From: Candidatus Wolframiiraptor sinensis
GTDB lineage: Archaea; Thermoproteota; Nitrososphaeria_A; Caldarchaeales; Wolframiiraptoraceae
Direction: 5' to 3'
Length of the DNA stretch: 64,000 bases
Assembly (NCBI GenBank): GCA_023261815.1
Contig: JALNKA010000001.1
Coordinates: 97,347 to 161,346 of the forward strand
Below are positions 52,233 to 58,515 of this stretch, piece by piece. The notes under the pieces are model-generated. The model was given only the letters and a program-made list of their open reading frames with translations. It had not been told where the DNA came from and searched no databases. Both the position numbers and the translations under genes were made by a program. Each line of letters begins with the position of its first letter. The first letter of the stretch is position 1.

Positions 52233-52727
52233 ATGGGAAGGAAGGCTCGAGAAATAGTTGAGAAGGCTGGAGTAAAGGTCGATGAGCTCATCGAGATGCT
52301 GAAAAAGGCTTATGCCGATGAGTGGATAGCCTTCTACTATTACAATCTCTTGGCTAAGCTGGCCAAGGGCATCGGCTCCACGGAGATCGCGGATCAGATA
52401 AAGAAGATAGCGGATGAGGAGCTCGAGCACCAGTCGGAGCTTGCCGATAGGATCATCCAGCTCGGCGGAGAGCCTCCGAGAAGATTCGAGGATTTAGTTA
52501 AGATCGCGAACTGCCCATACGTCGAGGTTCCGAAGAACACTGGCGACTTAAAAGCAGTGGTCAGGGCGATAATCGAGGCGGAGGGATGCGCGATCGAGGC
52601 CTACGATAAGATACTGAAATGGCTGAAGGATGTTGGCCCCGACCCTGTAACCTTCCACGTCATCAGGCACATACTGCAGGAAGAGGTCGAGCACGAGGAC
52701 TTATTCGAGACAATCCTGGGAGAGTAG
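52233..52727 (+). CDS. ferritin-like / Dps-like diiron protein
   Basis: Four-helix ferritin-like pattern with E-x-x-H pairs (EELEHQ, EEVEHE). Confidence 0.65.
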   Translation: MGRKAREIVEKAGVKVDELIEMLKKAYADEWIAFYYYNLLAKLAKGIGSTEIADQIKKIADEELEHQSELADRIIQLGGEPPRRFEDLVKIANCPYVEVPKNTGDLKAVVRAIIEAEGCAIEAYDKILKWLKDVGPDPVTFHVIRHILQEEVEHEDLFETILGE

Positions 52728-52763: not shown

Positions 52764-54026
52764 CTATCCTCTCAGTATCTTTAGCCTCGAGAGCTCATCG
52801 GCGAGTATCGGTAGAAATGCTCCCACATCTGATATGACGCCGATTGATTGGGCCGTCCCCCTATCCACGAGCTTGAGGACGACCGAGGGGTTGATGTCCA
52901 CGCACACGACCTTGGCGGTTGATGGGAGCATGTTCCCGACGGCGATTGAGTGGAGCATCGAGGCCAGCATGAGCACCATGCTAGCGTCCTTCAAGTGCCT
53001 CCTATACTCCCTCTGCGACTCGACCACGTCTGTTATCACGTCTGGTATCGGGCCATCATCGCGAATCGAACCAGCGAGCACATAAGGAATGCCATGGACG
53101 ATGCACTCATAGAATATCCCCTTCTTTAAGACGCCCTTCTCTACGGCGCCCCTAAGACCGCCGCATTTCATGATCTCGTTTATGGCGGCCAGGTGATTCC
53201 TGCTCCCGCCGGGCATCCTCACGCCCTCATCGACCTTGAATCCCAGAGATGTTCCGAAGAGAGCGTACTCCACGTCATGGACCGCGAGCGCGTTACCGGA
53301 GAGCAACGCATCAACGAAGCCCATTCTTATTATCCTCGCGAGGTGCTCCGCGGCTCCTGTGTGGACGATGGCCGGCCCAGCGACCACGACTATCTTCCCG
53401 CCCAACTCCTTAACCCTAACCATCTCAAGAGCTATCTTCTTGACTATCGTGGGCGTCGGCTTCTCGGAAGAAGCCCTGCTACTCATGAACTCGAAGATGC
53501 CCGCGCCGGCCCTAGGGTACTCGGGGGGCTTGACGCGAACCCCCTCCTCTCCGACCACTATCAAATCTCCCTTCTTGACCTCCCTGATCGACTTGCAGTA
53601 AGCCCTCTCTTCCAGCGGATCCACGACTATCACCTTATCCATGCAGATGTTCTCGACCTCGATCCACCTGCCCTTATAGCGTATCCAAGTCGGGTGATTT
53701 GTCGTCGCGTAGAACCCGTCTGGGAGGACCATGTCGCGGGGCGCGGGCTCCAGCTTGACGTCAGAGATCTTTTCCGTCACCGCTCCGAGGGATCTCAGCT
53801 CTCTAAGGATTAGCTCGAGGTGCGCCGCGCTCTTCCCGATAATCAGCATCCTCGCGTAGCTAGGTTCATCCTTCCTTTTTCCAATCCTGAAGTCGAGGAC
53901 CTCGAATTCCCCGCCGAGATCCATGATCCTGTCAAAGATCTTCGGGAGTATGTGGGAGTCTATTAGATGACCTTCAAGCTCTATGATCTCCGAATACTTT
54001 TCTTCCGAGTCGTGGAAGGTGGTCAC
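52764..54026 (-). CDS. TIGR00300 / LOR-SDH conserved-region family protein (possibly ornithine cyclodeaminase-like)
   Basis: Overall resemblance to the archaeal ~420-aa family with a Rossmann-like C-terminal half. Weakly supported. Confidence 0.45.
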   Translation of the reverse strand: MTTFHDSEEKYSEIIELEGHLIDSHILPKIFDRIMDLGGEFEVLDFRIGKRKDEPSYARMLIIGKSAAHLELILRELRSLGAVTEKISDVKLEPAPRDMVLPDGFYATTNHPTWIRYKGRWIEVENICMDKVIVVDPLEERAYCKSIREVKKGDLIVVGEEGVRVKPPEYPRAGAGIFEFMSSRASSEKPTPTIVKKIALEMVRVKELGGKIVVVAGPAIVHTGAAEHLARIIRMGFVDALLSGNALAVHDVEYALFGTSLGFKVDEGVRMPGGSRNHLAAINEIMKCGGLRGAVEKGVLKKGIFYECIVHGIPYVLAGSIRDDGPIPDVITDVVESQREYRRHLKDASMVLMLASMLHSIAVGNMLPSTAKVVCVDINPSVVLKLVDRGTAQSIGVISDVGAFLPILADELSRLKILRG

Positions 54027-54104: not shown

Positions 54105-54770
54105 TTAACGCCTGATGCGCCCCTCCTCCAGCACTATCACCTCATCCGGCTCCAACTCATCCGGCAGCTCTCCGCCCCCATGAGATGCTATCACGATTCC
54201 AGCGCCGTTTCTCCTCCTCTCTTGAAGGGCTGCGGCCACAAGCCTGGATCTCTCACTATCTAGGTGGGCGAACGGCTCATCGAGGAGTATTAGCTCGGGC
54301 TCAACCGCTAGGGCGCGGGCGATCGCGACTAGCTGTGACTGGCCCGTCGAAAGCTCCTTAGCATTCTTATCCGCCAGCTCCATGAGCTCGAGCTCCTTCA
54401 TGATTATCTCCGCTCTCTCGGCAACATTTCTCGAGTCGAGCCCTCTGATCCTGAGAGGATAAGCGATGTTCTCGAGAACGCTTCCGCGGATCAAGATGGG
54501 CTTCTCATGAACGTACGTGATCTTCCTCCTAGCCGCGATCTTCTCGGCCTCACTCATTTCCCAGAAGCTTTGACCATCCACGATGACATCGCCGCGCAGG
54601 GGTCTATAAAGCAGGGCCGCTATCTTAAGGAGCGTAGTCTTGCCGCTGCCATTATGGCCCGAGACGAGAATAACTCTTCCCGATGTGAGCTCAGCCGAGA
54701 TGTTTTCCAGCGCCCACGCCGCCATGCCGGGGTACTTGTGCCAAATGCCCCTCAGCTCGATGACCATCAC
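54105..54770 (-). CDS. ABC transporter ATP-binding protein (tungstate/molybdate WtpC/TupC-like)
   Basis: GHNGSGKTT, LSTGQSQ and LILLDEP motifs in a short (~220 aa) form. Operon context. Confidence 0.75.
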   Translation of the reverse strand: MMVIELRGIWHKYPGMAAWALENISAELTSGRVILVSGHNGSGKTTLLKIAALLYRPLRGDVIVDGQSFWEMSEAEKIAARRKITYVHEKPILIRGSVLENIAYPLRIRGLDSRNVAERAEIIMKELELMELADKNAKELSTGQSQLVAIARALAVEPELILLDEPFAHLDSERSRLVAAALQERRRNGAGIVIASHGGGELPDELEPDEVIVLEEGRIRR

Positions 54771-55453
54771 TGCGCTCTCACCCCCATCAAGATCTTAACG
54801 GATATCGCGGTCATGATCATGAGCACTAGGAGTATGATGCCGAGTATTATGGCGCTTTCGAATTCGCCTCGAGCCACGTCGAGCGCTATCGCCGTCGTCA
54901 TAACCCTCGTGAAGCCCCTGATGTTCCCGCCCACCATCATGGCGATGCCGAGCTCTCCAACAGCCCTCGAGAACCCCATTATCGTCGAGGCCGCGACTCC
55001 GGGCGCCGACTCCCGGAGAACGAGCATCATGGCTTGAGACCTGCCCGCTCCAAGGCTTAGCGCGAGCTCGAGATAAGATGTTGCGATGCCCCTAAGAGCC
55101 CTATAACACGTCGAGATTATAAGGGGTGTTATGAGAATTGCTTGGCCGATTATGATCGCCTGGGGCGTATAGAGGAGCTTGAGGAAGCCGAGGGGACCCG
55201 AGCTACTGAGAAGAAGGAAGAGCAGCAGGCCGAGGAGAACAGTCGGCATCCCTACCAGCGACTCGATGAGCGCCTCGAGAACAACAACTCTCCTCCTAAG
55301 TGAGAGGAGGTATGCGGCTGGAATGCTCCAAGAGGCGGATAAAAGAGTCGCGAAGCCGGAAACGTAAATCGACCTAAGGGACACATCTAGGATCTCGGAG
55401 AATACTTGGCTCATGGGAAGCCCACCTCCATGCCAGATGCAAACTCGCTCCAC
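54767..55453 (-). CDS. ABC transporter permease (WtpB/TupB/ModB-like)
   Basis: Six TM helices and the EAA-like loop (ALSLGAGRSQAMMLVLRESAP). Confidence 0.75.
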   Translation of the reverse strand: MERVCIWHGGGLPMSQVFSEILDVSLRSIYVSGFATLLSASWSIPAAYLLSLRRRVVVLEALIESLVGMPTVLLGLLLFLLLSSSGPLGFLKLLYTPQAIIIGQAILITPLIISTCYRALRGIATSYLELALSLGAGRSQAMMLVLRESAPGVAASTIMGFSRAVGELGIAMMVGGNIRGFTRVMTTAIALDVARGEFESAIILGIILLVLMIMTAISVKILMGVRAQ

Positions 55454-56322
55454 AAATCCCCGAGTTTCTCAATATTCTCATCGGCCGGGCGGAATAGCGG
55501 CTGCCCATACTCTCTCTCGCCGAACACTCTTATCTGATCCTGATTCTCTTGAAGAAACTTTAGGAAGAGCAGGGCATACCTCTTCTCGTCTCCGGAGCAG
55601 GCTTTAGCAACATAGGCCGAGTATATGTTGATCATATCCGGATCATCCGGGCTCGCGTAGAGGATGACGAGGCTTGGGAGCTTCCCCTCGCTTTTCAGCC
55701 TAAGATATGAGCCGATATCTGCCAGAGAGTAGGCTGAGAGCTCATTCGCGATTATCAGGGTCTGCTCCATCCCTGCAGCGGCCTCCCTGTACCATCCTCC
55801 GCCGGCGGGATTTAGTCCAGCCCTACCCCAAATCCCCAGCTCCCTGAGATGCGTTCCCGATAAATCGCCTCTACTGATGAAGATTATTTTGCCCGATTCG
55901 CCGGCCGAGTAGATCCTCCTGAAGGCCTCGATGACGCTTCTCGATCCCCTGACCTCCGCCGGATCCCCTTCGGGCCCCACTATGATAAAGTAATTATATG
56001 CGAATATCACGCCCGCCTCGAGCACGCCCCTCTCCACGTACTGCTTTTCGAGACTCGGCGCATGGGCGAGCACGGCGCAGGCATCGCCGCGCTCAGCGTA
56101 TTTAAGTGCGGCACCAGTTCCAGCCGCTATGAACTCGATCCTAACCCCGGGATACTTTTCCTCGAATTTTCTTTTGAGCTCGTCGAGGAGCCCAGTGGCG
56201 TATAGCGATGTGGTGGTCGCTATCCTGATCCTCACCTCGCTGGATAGGAGCACGTGAGCGGATCCCGCCACGATCGCCGCAGCCAAGATCATGGCAAGCG
56301 CGATGAGCCTCCGGGAGATCAT
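55411..56322 (-). CDS. tungstate/molybdate-binding periplasmic protein (WtpA/TupA/ModA family) with a signal anchor
   Basis: TTTSLYATGLLDEL and the surrounding PBP type II fold. Confidence 0.65.
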   Translation of the reverse strand: MISRRLIALAMILAAAIVAGSAHVLLSSEVRIRIATTTSLYATGLLDELKRKFEEKYPGVRIEFIAAGTGAALKYAERGDACAVLAHAPSLEKQYVERGVLEAGVIFAYNYFIIVGPEGDPAEVRGSRSVIEAFRRIYSAGESGKIIFISRGDLSGTHLRELGIWGRAGLNPAGGGWYREAAAGMEQTLIIANELSAYSLADIGSYLRLKSEGKLPSLVILYASPDDPDMINIYSAYVAKACSGDEKRYALLFLKFLQENQDQIRVFGEREYGQPLFRPADENIEKLGDLWSEFASGMEVGFP

Positions 56323-56372
56323 GCAAGTTTGCCGCGACACCTCGCCACCGAAGGCTTATTGAGCATTTTGAC

Positions 56373-56394
56373 CGTTATCCGAAAACCAATAACG
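56373..56394. promoter_or_regulatory. inverted repeat CGTTAT-N10-ATAACG between the divergent wtpA and modE-like genes
   Basis: Seen directly in the sequence. It is followed by the TATA-like CTTATAGC (56395-56402), and the half-sites resemble E. coli ModE operator half-sites. Confidence 0.5.
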
Positions 56395-56416
56395 CTTATA
56401 GCGCCCATCGCGCCCG

Positions 56417-57457
56417 ATGTGGTTGATGGCGAGGATCACGATTAGATTCGAGTGCATGGTTGAGCTTGGTGGAAGGCCTGTTCTCGACCGGCTCTCCGCG
56501 CAGGTTCTCAGGGCCATAGATGAGCGGCTCTCGATAATCGCGGCATCCAGGGCTCTCGGAATACCATACACGAGCATATGGGAGATAATCTCGAGGATCG
56601 AGAGGCTTGCCGGCGGCCGTATAGTTATCGCTAGAAGAGGTGGGCTGGGCGGTGGAGGCGCCAGATTAACCGCCCTCGGGAGAAGGCTTCTCAACGCATA
56701 TGAGGAGGGGGTTAGGATGCTCGCGACCGCCGGACTCCACGCGCCGCTGCACCCTTCATCGAGCCCGCAGCTTCTCATGGCCCATAGCAGCGACCCGCTT
56801 CTTGACATGATTCTAGAGAGGCTTTCGCATGAGGGCTGCTCGGCGAGATGCTTCTGCGTGGGCTCCGGCTTATCGCTCGCCATGCTCTCCCTCGAGGAGG
56901 CCGATGTCGCGGGAATACACCTCTACGACCCCCAAACTGGGTCATATAATGAGCCGTATCTCGAGAGATTCTGGCTCCGGGATAAGGTTGCGAGGCTCGG
57001 CGGATATGAGAGGCAGCTCGTCATGGCGTATGGCGAGCGGGTGAGAGCGAGAAGCCTAGACGAGATCTTGAAGGCCCTTCTCTCGGGGGAGCTGAGACTC
57101 GCGAACCGGAATCGGGGCTCCGGGACGAGGATCCTTATCGACCACCTCCTCGAGCAGGCTGGAAAAAATGTCGGCGCTGACCCGAGGCGCGTTAGGGGAT
57201 ATGAGAAGGAGCATTACACGCATGAGGAGGTTGCGAGGAGTATTGCGTCCGGAGACGCTGACGCCGGGTTGCTGCTGAGATGCGTGGCGGACGAGCATGA
57301 TCTCCCATGGATGCACGTCGCGTGGGAGCGCTACGAGTACTATGCCCTGAGGTCCCGAGCTGGAGGAGAGGGGGTTCAGAGGCTGAAGCAGATCCTTGAG
57401 TCGAGCTGGCTCGACGACGCGCTTTCATCAAAACCCGGATACAGAAAAATTGATTGA
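56417..57457 (+). CDS. ModE-like regulator: N-terminal ModE/LysR-type HTH plus a C-terminal periplasmic-binding-protein-like domain
   Basis: LSAQVLRAIDERLSIIAASRALGIPYTSIWEIISRIE (ModE N-domain), then a PBP-like domain. Confidence 0.6.
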   Translation: MWLMARITIRFECMVELGGRPVLDRLSAQVLRAIDERLSIIAASRALGIPYTSIWEIISRIERLAGGRIVIARRGGLGGGGARLTALGRRLLNAYEEGVRMLATAGLHAPLHPSSSPQLLMAHSSDPLLDMILERLSHEGCSARCFCVGSGLSLAMLSLEEADVAGIHLYDPQTGSYNEPYLERFWLRDKVARLGGYERQLVMAYGERVRARSLDEILKALLSGELRLANRNRGSGTRILIDHLLEQAGKNVGADPRRVRGYEKEHYTHEEVARSIASGDADAGLLLRCVADEHDLPWMHVAWERYEYYALRSRAGGEGVQRLKQILESSWLDDALSSKPGYRKID

Positions 57458-57471
57458 AGGTGGAGAGGGCC

Positions 57472-58515
57472 CTAGTAGAGTCTCGGCTTAGGTATTCTCA
57501 GGAATCTCCTGATTCCAGCGAGCACCTCGCTCTTCCCGCCGATGAGTGCTATCAGGTCGTATGCGGCTTTAGCGATGATCTTGCCGGAAATGCTTATGCT
57601 CGGCGCCAGCTGGAGCTCTATCTCGCCGAACCTTATGTCGGGGAAAGCCTCAGGCCCTGAGTTATATGATTGAATTGCGGCTCTAGGCAGGTTTGGATCC
57701 CGCTTCGGCACATCAAGGCAATCATCCTGGCTTGAGGGGATATCGCGGCTTCTGAGAATGAGCGCTGACCACTCCCTTTTCCCGATCCTCGCAACGTAGG
57801 CTATGGCGCCCAGCTCGGGATCCCTGAGATCCTCCGGCTTAACCCCGAGCTTCGAGACATACTGCCCATCTATCTTGAATGAGATGTGATCGCTCGAAAC
57901 CCTCAGCCTATCTCTGGGGATCTCGACGAAGTAGTGTATCGGCTCAGCCCTCCTCTTCACGGGAACTAGAGCTGTTCCTGTGCCCACCCCGCTCACCGGA
58001 ACCTGGGCCAAAACCCATGGATTCACCCTAACAGGATACTCGCCGACCAAGGCATCAATGATTCTAAGCCTCATGAATCCCTTCCTCGACTCGAGGAGCC
58101 TGATCTCTCGGCGGACCTGAGCCTCAAGCCGCGCTCCGAGAAGATTATCATCGGCGCGAATCCGCCCCTCTAGCACAGCCCTCCCAGAATCCACCTCGAT
58201 AATCCTGTGCTCTCCGGGATCTATTCCCTCGGGGCAGAACCATTCCTCAAAGGTCTCAGGCTTCTTGTAGAAGAAGTTCCTCTCAGGGGAGATCCAGAGT
58301 CTGAGCCCGCCAGTGTTCCACTCATTCCTCGATAGCACGCTCTCCAACTTGGGATTAACCCATAGTAGATTGGGCGATGAATCGAGGAAGATGCCCAGCA
58401 CCCTAGCTCCCCTCTCGCATACGACGATCCTACAATTCTTATCATGGAGAACAGCGCTCTTGGAGAACCGATCGATTACCCCGACGAGCTCCTCCAAGCT
58501 AATCGACTCGCTCAT
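57472..58515 (-). CDS. hypothetical protein (347 aa)
   Basis: Long ORF with coding-like composition; no family recognised. Confidence 0.4.
   Translation of the reverse strand: MSESISLEELVGVIDRFSKSAVLHDKNCRIVVCERGARVLGIFLDSSPNLLWVNPKLESVLSRNEWNTGGLRLWISPERNFFYKKPETFEEWFCPEGIDPGEHRIIEVDSGRAVLEGRIRADDNLLGARLEAQVRREIRLLESRKGFMRLRIIDALVGEYPVRVNPWVLAQVPVSGVGTGTALVPVKRRAEPIHYFVEIPRDRLRVSSDHISFKIDGQYVSKLGVKPEDLRDPELGAIAYVARIGKREWSALILRSRDIPSSQDDCLDVPKRDPNLPRAAIQSYNSGPEAFPDIRFGEIELQLAPSISISGKIIAKAAYDLIALIGGKSEVLAGIRRFLRIPKPRLY

Follow-up and report, generated by a model that had tools for sequence, protein, structure and literature searches.

At positions 54105-57457 of a 64-kb stretch of the Candidatus Wolframiiraptor sinensis genome (hereafter the window), three genes for an ATP-binding cassette (ABC) importer on the minus strand stand back to back with a gene for a putative transcriptional regulator, and a near-palindromic 22-bp element lies between them. 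We examined this element as the candidate operator of the regulator, using the window and 80 genomic loci around relatives of the regulator that were gathered from a 15-sequence alignment (~876 kb searched in all; loci are designated by L numbers). The features of the locus are as follows.

54105..54770, minus strand: ABC transporter ATPase, TupC-like, 221 aa (PF00005, E = 4e-29)
54767..55453, minus strand: ABC permease, TupB-like (PF00528; NF038017, 5e-54, above cut-off)
55411..56340, minus strand: substrate-binding protein, TupA-type (NF041772, 6e-38; PF12849, 5e-27)
~56354-56360, minus strand: CAATAAG, a second candidate box for the tup promoter, in minus-strand reading
56360..56368, minus strand: candidate A/T-rich TATA-like box of the tup promoter, reading TCAAAATG just past the left half-site
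56373..56394, no strand: predicted 22-bp operator CGTTATCCGAAAACCAATAACG, a near-palindrome conserved across loci
56395..56402, plus strand: TATA-like box CTTATAGC, probable promoter box of the regulator itself, abutting the right half-site
56417..57457 (346 aa) or 56426..57457 (343 aa), plus strand: regulator (TIGR00637 and PF12727)
56489-56716 (about residues 22-97), plus strand: ModE-type winged helix-turn-helix (HTH; TIGR00637, E = 1e-16)
between the winged HTH and the sensor, plus strand: linker helix of the regulator
56762-57454 (about residues 113-343), plus strand: PF12727 periplasmic-binding-protein (PBP)-like sensor domain (PF12727, E = 6e-40)

An earlier note on this DNA had described the minus-strand genes as wtpA/tupA-like, permease and ATPase. 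The assignment to an ABC oxoanion importer with a TupA-type binding protein stands, whereas identity with WtpA does not, the binding protein matching the WtpA model at 1e-4 only as against 6e-38 for NF041772. Its translation contains IATTTS and SRGDLSGT, which correspond to the TTTS motif and to the Arg118 and Thr124 positions, the residues defining characterised TupA (PMC5517513). The scores of the Tup proteins remain below the equivalog cut-offs of NCBIfam (130.7 bits for the binding protein against NF041772, cut-off 400; 104.5 bits and 7e-30 for the permease against the TupB model NF041773, cut-off 320), and we therefore regard them as members of a divergent archaeal Tup clade. TupABC homologues have been reported from the Caldarchaeales (PMC9246946). 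The ATPase has no TOBE domain and its NCBIfam matches are to generic ABC ATPases only; it is collinear with TupB and TupA homologues in 15 related loci. The start codon of the binding protein is ambiguous in the window (GTG 56340 or ATG 56322), while alignment of the regulator homologues shows that most of them begin at the ATG equivalent to 56426, giving a protein of 343 aa. The 76-bp spacer reported previously is accordingly right for the longest open reading frames (ORFs), and becomes 103 bp with the ATGs at 56322 and 56426.

The divergent gene was said to encode a ModE-type HTH fused to a PBP-like sensor, and domain searches agree (TIGR00637, 1e-16; PF12727, 6e-40, the latter match spanning residues 137-327; 343 aa from the favoured ATG). 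With 60.7 bits the protein does not reach the 98.5-bit subfamily cut-off of TIGR00637. Its head nevertheless matches ModE structures in the PDB over residues 25-93 (1B9M/1O7L, 4e-6; 2IJL, 3e-7), including the GGxGGGGAxLT wing. HTH_1 reaches 23.7 bits, below its 26.6 cut-off, and neither PF03466 nor PF12728 matches the regulator. No TOBE/Mop match was found in the regulator at E <= 0.01, and PF03459 is listed for 0 of 101 homologues. For the sensor the best NCBIfam match is to the C-terminal part of PRK14498 (7e-49, residues 115-343 against model positions 415-636). The AlphaFold2 model of the regulator has a mean confidence (pLDDT) of 90.5. When searched at full length with Foldseek, this model gave full-length LysR-type regulators as best matches (OxyR 6g4r, 2.7e-14, TM ~0.45), and its C-terminal domain gave TupA 3lr1, ModA 2h5y and WtpA 3cfx at ~1e-9. 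A sequence search of the PDB with the sensor domain returned nothing at E <= 1, so that the link to TupA, ModA and WtpA comes from fold comparison only. Alignment of the sensor with the TupA-type protein of the window by hhalign was weak (E = 0.004); it places the family-invariant R228 on Arg118, the near-invariant T234 on Thr124 and an HSSD loop on TTTS. Taken together, these predicted sensor features support an oxoanion pocket.

The inverted repeat is where the earlier note had put it and has the sequence given there: CGTTAT at 56373-56378, the spacer ccgaaaacca, ATAACG at 56389-56394, and then, directly, the TATA-like CTTATAGC at 56395-56402. Exact CGTTAT-N10-ATAACG occurs once in the window, and the three matches with two mismatches (21769, 41591, 54884) all lie within coding ORFs. 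By itself, a 6-bp inverted repeat is no more than chance: perfect repeats with gaps of 0-20 appeared in 17% of shuffled 76-bp spacers and in 29% of shuffled 103-bp spacers. We judged the repeat to be real because it is conserved at orthologous loci, and not by its sequence alone.

Such conservation, the absence of which had been named in advance as grounds for refuting the proposal, was found. There were 24 sites with at most one mismatch in the ~876 kb searched, against ~1.9 expected by chance (base-frequency estimate), and 23 of these lie directly upstream of a regulator homologue, 27-80 nt before the match to it; one stray site was observed. Versions with two mismatches occur at three more orthologous loci, and the consensus draws on 26 loci in two archaeal phyla. 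Across the 19 non-redundant loci, which represent Nitrososphaeria, Bathyarchaeia, Archaeoglobales, Pyrodictiaceae, Desulfurococcales, Acidilobaceae and Zestosphaera, the GTTAT/ATAAC core is invariant (19/19; 1.6-1.9 bits per position), and information falls to ~0 bits beyond ~10 nt outside the site. Since the regulators at site-bearing loci are 37-83% identical to the window protein, this footprint is not leftover similarity of close relatives. In the family consensus, CGTTATc.GAwAaCcGATAACG, arms of 9 bp each (roughly CGTTATCSG) flank an A/T-rich centre of 4 bp; the operator spacer is itself partly constrained across the family. A third GAWAAC repeat in the spacer was considered and rejected, as columns 7/16, 9/14 and 11/12 are symmetric and only 10/13 break the symmetry; we read the site as an extended palindrome and not as three half-sites.

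Several loci depart from this pattern. In Pyrodictiaceae and Desulfurococcales, extra GATAAC(N)G direct repeats overlap or abut the operator (L013:5928-5956, L017:5928-5956, L015:5906-5927, L019:5910-5940 and L022:4835-4863), and L013 and L017 contain a second register, shifted by 7 bp, with a score of 24 bits; these repeats may reflect more than one binding register or cooperative binding. The Ignisphaera orthologues of L016 and L020 (5780-6000; 43-44% identity) have neither an upstream operator nor an adjacent transporter, and their recognition helix reads PFSYVYD versus PYSRAWE. Upstream of tupA in a Nitrososphaeria metagenome-assembled genome (L039:3440-3500) is a related box, CGTTAT-N11-ATAGCG, preceded by the A/T box aaaaatatata; tupABC is there collinear with a more distant regulator homologue (32% identity), and the spacing and position of the related box differ.

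A/T enrichment flanks the conserved site on both sides, at positions -4 to -11 on the left (up to 1.1 bits) and at +24 to +28 on the right (19 non-redundant loci). The right-hand equivalents of CTTATAGC in other loci read CTTTTAAA, CTTTTATT or CTTATAAC. The boxes are plain in the Archaeoglobales, with ATAACGCTTTTAAAT on the right and its other-strand counterpart on the left, where the boxes are clear (TTTTTAAA). Leaderless archaeal mRNAs start about 26 nt from the TATA box. In the window the centre of CTTATAGC lies ~27 nt before ATG 56426, and the regulator ATG is found 26-31 nt past the site in the window and in L001-3, L006, L008, L010-13, L017, L018, L025 and L034, which therefore fits the spacing of a leaderless transcript; the regulator mRNA is probably leaderless. 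On this geometry CTTATAGC would be the promoter box of the regulator itself, which favours ATG 56426 over 56417. The start of the divergent binding protein lies 32-50 nt to the left of the site. The tup-promoter box of the window is weak and is a candidate only. The earlier placing of the operator at the transporter promoter needs correction: the candidate A/T box of that promoter is on the left flank, the TATA-like box singled out earlier fits the regulator promoter, and the operator appears to lie between two back-to-back core promoters, each half-site standing where a transcription factor B (TFB)-recognition element (BRE) would be.

The genes that stand divergent from the regulator are not always the same. 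TupABC occupies this position in 15 loci, and WtpABC replaces it in Archaeoglobales and Bathyarchaeia (L004, L005, L007, L008, L010-L012, L014 and L025; for example L008:3181-5934). These Wtp assignments are at equivalog level, with 397-399 bits for WtpA in L004 and L008 (cut-off 355) and 506 bits for WtpC in L008 (cut-off 440). One cis-element is retained across a swap of two sequence-unrelated tungstate importers, Tup and Wtp. Because the same operator and regulator accompany either TupABC or WtpABC, the context favours tungstate over molybdate. In Bathyarchaeia a gene of the aldehyde ferredoxin oxidoreductase (AOR) family follows directly after the regulator in convergent orientation (L014:7005-8918, L009:1086-2996 and L007:2367-3245); no operator-like site was found upstream of these AOR-like genes within the loci. 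The PF12727 domain of archaeal MoeA1 has been proposed to capture tungstate for cofactor synthesis, and in 86% of the bacterial cases PF12727-MoeA is found together with TupA (PMC11733289). TupA and WtpA bind molybdate too, more weakly (PMC5517513). Growth of Wolframiiraptor depends on tungsten (PMC9246946).

Comparison with characterised regulators shows which parts of the system are familiar. E. coli ModE shares the homologous N-terminal DNA-binding domain, a palindromic operator at the promoter of an oxoanion ABC importer and the half-sites CGnTAT/ATAnCG. Its consensus, ATCGNTATATA-N6-TATATANCGAT, may be written CGnTATATA-N6-TATATAnCG, that is CGnTAT-N12-ATAnCG, with a core gap of 12 bp (PMC545781). 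The Methanosarcina acetivorans ModE motif RTTATGT-N8-RCATAAY, validated by electrophoretic mobility shift assay, corresponds to GTTAT-N12-ATAAC and also has a core gap of 12 bp (PMC12327845). In contrast, the regulator family described here has GTTAT-N10-ATAAC, with a core gap of 10 bp, in all 26 loci. The suggestion that the half-sites resemble ModE boxes holds for the core, in E. coli and in M. acetivorans; the spacing is 2 bp shorter (10 bp versus 12 bp). The shorter spacing may reflect another dimer geometry, imposed by the other C-terminal domain. Whereas E. coli ModE carries two Mop/TOBE domains behind its winged HTH, the present regulator has the PF12727 PBP-like domain and no Mop/TOBE; it also differs in its archaeal TATA/BRE promoter setting and in its probable ligand, tungstate. 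In E. coli the oxoanion-loaded ModE dimer represses uptake (PMC545781, PMC11672702). M. acetivorans ModE is likewise an archaeal ModE-head regulator with a GTTAT/ATAAC core and sites upstream of Mo/W transporter genes (PMC12327845). Its sensor, however, is a single Mop domain and not PBP-like, and its sites are numerous in the genome (at nitrogenase genes among others), unlike the one site per locus seen in the present family.

The PF12727 sensor is shared with the TaoR/TupR/TunR proteins of sulfate-reducing bacteria (PMC11980592), which are reported to regulate tungstate transport and tungstoenzymes (PMC10102598, citing Rajeev 2019). These proteins are bacterial, and their DNA-binding domain is HTH_17 (PF12728) in place of the ModE/HTH_1 type found here; proteins combining HTH_17 and PF12727 are among the regulator homologues (1e-18 to 1e-11). 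As noted above, the sensor has its best NCBIfam match in archaeal MoeA1 (PRK14498). The PBP-like domain of that protein is also cytoplasmic with a proposed part in tungstate capture, but it is fused to the enzyme MoeA and its proposed role is channelling, not sensing (PMC11733289). ModE has itself been classed with the LysR regulators (PMC11672702). LysR-type regulators share with the present protein the winged HTH, the linker helix and a type-II PBP-fold effector domain. They differ in that PF03466 has no match here, HTH_1 stays below its cut-off and the operator is a single short palindrome, whereas a pair of regulatory and activation binding sites (RBS/ABS) is typical of LysR-type binding sites.

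We consider it probable, at roughly two chances in three, that the palindrome is the operator of the adjacent regulator and that the latter is a tungstate-sensing repressor which occludes both promoters. The regulator would read the palindrome as a dimer through its ModE-type winged helix, while the cytoplasmic TupA-like PBP domain would sense an oxoanion, most probably tungstate. The tungstate-loaded dimer, when bound to the palindrome, would block assembly of TATA-binding protein (TBP) and TFB at both promoters, of which the left would drive tupABC and the right the regulator gene. Uptake and regulator synthesis would then both be shut off when intracellular tungstate is sufficient. Binding of the protein to the site, tungstate as the ligand and repression as the direction are here inferred from sequence comparison and analogy. 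We propose repression because molybdate-bound ModE represses modABC (PMC4284476, PMC11672702), and the logic of a repressor beside an uptake operon is conventional.

Several points weigh against this proposal. A site beside a BRE can, in archaea, also recruit TFB and so lead to activation. The left-hand A/T box of the window is a poor one, the start of tupA there is ambiguous, and the hhalign alignment of sensor and TupA has a probability of 8% at its E of 0.004. The homologues in L028-31, L033, L035 and L037-38 keep the usual recognition helix yet have no site upstream of their own gene, and the sequence of this helix was accordingly rejected as a predictor of the site. The literature searched contained no binding, ligand or expression data for any member of the regulator family. 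For the two PF12727 proteins of solved structure the listed ligand is phosphate (PMC10443332), so that some other oxoanion could be the effector. In vitro, neither M. acetivorans ModE nor TaoR responded to its oxoanion (PMC12327845), and by analogy with these two proteins allostery in the present family may not be simple.

The main rival reading is activation from the same site: the same regulator would bind beside the TATA boxes and, with tungstate in short supply, bring TFB/TBP to one promoter or to both, to be released or remodelled by tungstate. Archaeal activators commonly sit upstream of TATA boxes, and the site does lie upstream, not downstream, of both TATA-like boxes; the overall fold is LysR-like and many LysR-type regulators activate, as ModE can at some targets (PMC12327845). 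Yet the half-sites abut the A/T boxes and stand at the BRE, not farther upstream, transporter operons are repressed in the known precedent (ModE on modABC), and one symmetric site serving two promoters is most simply understood as an occluding site. We regard an activator as unlikely, and think much the same of the possibility that the effector is something other than tungstate (molybdate, phosphate or another tetrahedral oxoanion) or that the PBP-like domain serves only for dimerisation. The phosphate listed with PF12727 structures in the PDB (PMC10443332), the weaker binding of molybdate by TupA and WtpA (PMC5517513) and the database names of homologues, which refer to molybdate, would fit such an effector. 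What speaks for tungstate instead is the pairing of the regulator with either of two tungstate-selective importers, Tup or Wtp, the AOR-like neighbours, the 86% co-occurrence of PF12727-MoeA with TupA in bacteria (PMC11733289) and the complete or nearly complete conservation of the residues that align with Arg118 and Thr124 of TupA.

Two further alternatives concern the site and its partner. A genuine site might serve some other, unlinked transcription factor, and the regulator next to it might act elsewhere. The pairing of regulator and site is after all a predicted one, and certain homologues lack a site upstream of their gene. Nonetheless the site travels with the regulator gene whichever transporter family adjoins, and homologous ModE heads read these half-sites (PMC12327845, PMC545781), which makes an unlinked factor improbable. 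Less credible still is that the palindrome is not a regulator site at all, being instead a chance repeat, the BRE pair of the divergent promoters or an RNA hairpin. Shuffling the spacer yields a 6-bp inverted repeat in 17-29% of cases, GATAAC resembles a BRE in being rich in purines and in A (as compared with the Sulfolobus-type consensus), and the 14-base pattern is widespread by chance in metagenomes, including in terminator-like hairpins (see below). However, the same sequence with exactly N10 recurs in ~26 loci of two phyla while the flanks are randomised, which largely refutes this reading. The window contains 16 copies of ATAACG on one strand and 15 on the other, where ~12-13 would be expected, and few of them precede an A/T box; the arms are invariant and not covarying; and the start-codon geometry puts the element upstream of both transcripts. 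Repression by an adjacent tungstate sensor remains our preferred reading.

A weight-matrix scan of the window and the 80 loci found no second operator site within 6 kb of any regulator; its sole new candidate (L066:9308, 22 bits) lies inside a coding ORF and was taken as chance. In metagenomes CGTTATC-N8-GATAACG matched at least 120 contigs. These were rejected as regulon members, as among the matches listed none encodes a regulator relative, TupA/B, WtpA/B or AOR; the matches are due to chance, some falling in terminator-like hairpins, and are uninformative on the regulon. An identical hairpin, aaaaaaaaCGTTATCGTCTTCCTGATAACGtttttt, was seen in several contigs, among them L097, L107, L124, L175 and L190 (for example L097:2459-2480), at least one contig being from a human-gut metagenome. 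It looks like an intrinsic terminator that matches the pattern by chance and is unrelated to the operator.

None of the ten large window ORFs checked encodes a tungsten or molybdenum enzyme; they encode hydrogenases, HypF, Mrp/Nuo-type subunits and GlmS. The region 15156-45940 of the window contains two NiFe-hydrogenase large-subunit-like genes, HypF, a NuoF-like flavoprotein and three Mrp/Nuo antiporter-type subunits. Convergent to the regulator is a gene for a DUF6786 protein (57472-58515, minus strand; E = 9e-17), which is found at the same position in L001 and L002 (76-82% identity) and shows no obvious connection with tungsten. Immediately past the transporter come a ferritin/rubrerythrin-like gene (52233-52727, plus strand) and an ArgZ-like/LOR-SDH-type gene (52764-54026, minus strand), with no operator-like site at either.

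The literature searched, in which work on ModE elements and TaoR was covered in part, contained no archaeal tungsten-responsive transcription factor or operator and no description of the 22-bp motif. One review names molybdate-sensing ModE as so far the only metallosensor of the LysR group (PMC11672702). Comparative evidence gives good support to a predicted oxoanion regulator that joins a ModE head to a PBP-like sensor and would act at a ModE box of shortened form. More tentatively, and a little short of an even prospect, the pair may represent the first defined cis-element and sensor for archaeal tungsten homeostasis: a LysR-like family combining a ModE head with a cytoplasmic TupA-like tungstate pocket, its half-sites 2 bp closer than those of any characterised ModE, and a palindrome that also serves as the pair of BREs in a bidirectional promoter and is kept across the Tup/Wtp swap.

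Tungsten is essential for many thermophilic archaea, and the locus offers a concrete pair with which to approach its regulation, namely a 343-aa protein and a 22-bp site with a consensus from 26 loci (19 non-redundant) in two phyla. If the proposal is true, tungstate regulons would be predictable from sequence in uncultured archaea, and the ligand of PF12727, a domain also present in MoeA1 and TaoR, would be clarified. A thermostable tungstate-sensing module would also be gained.

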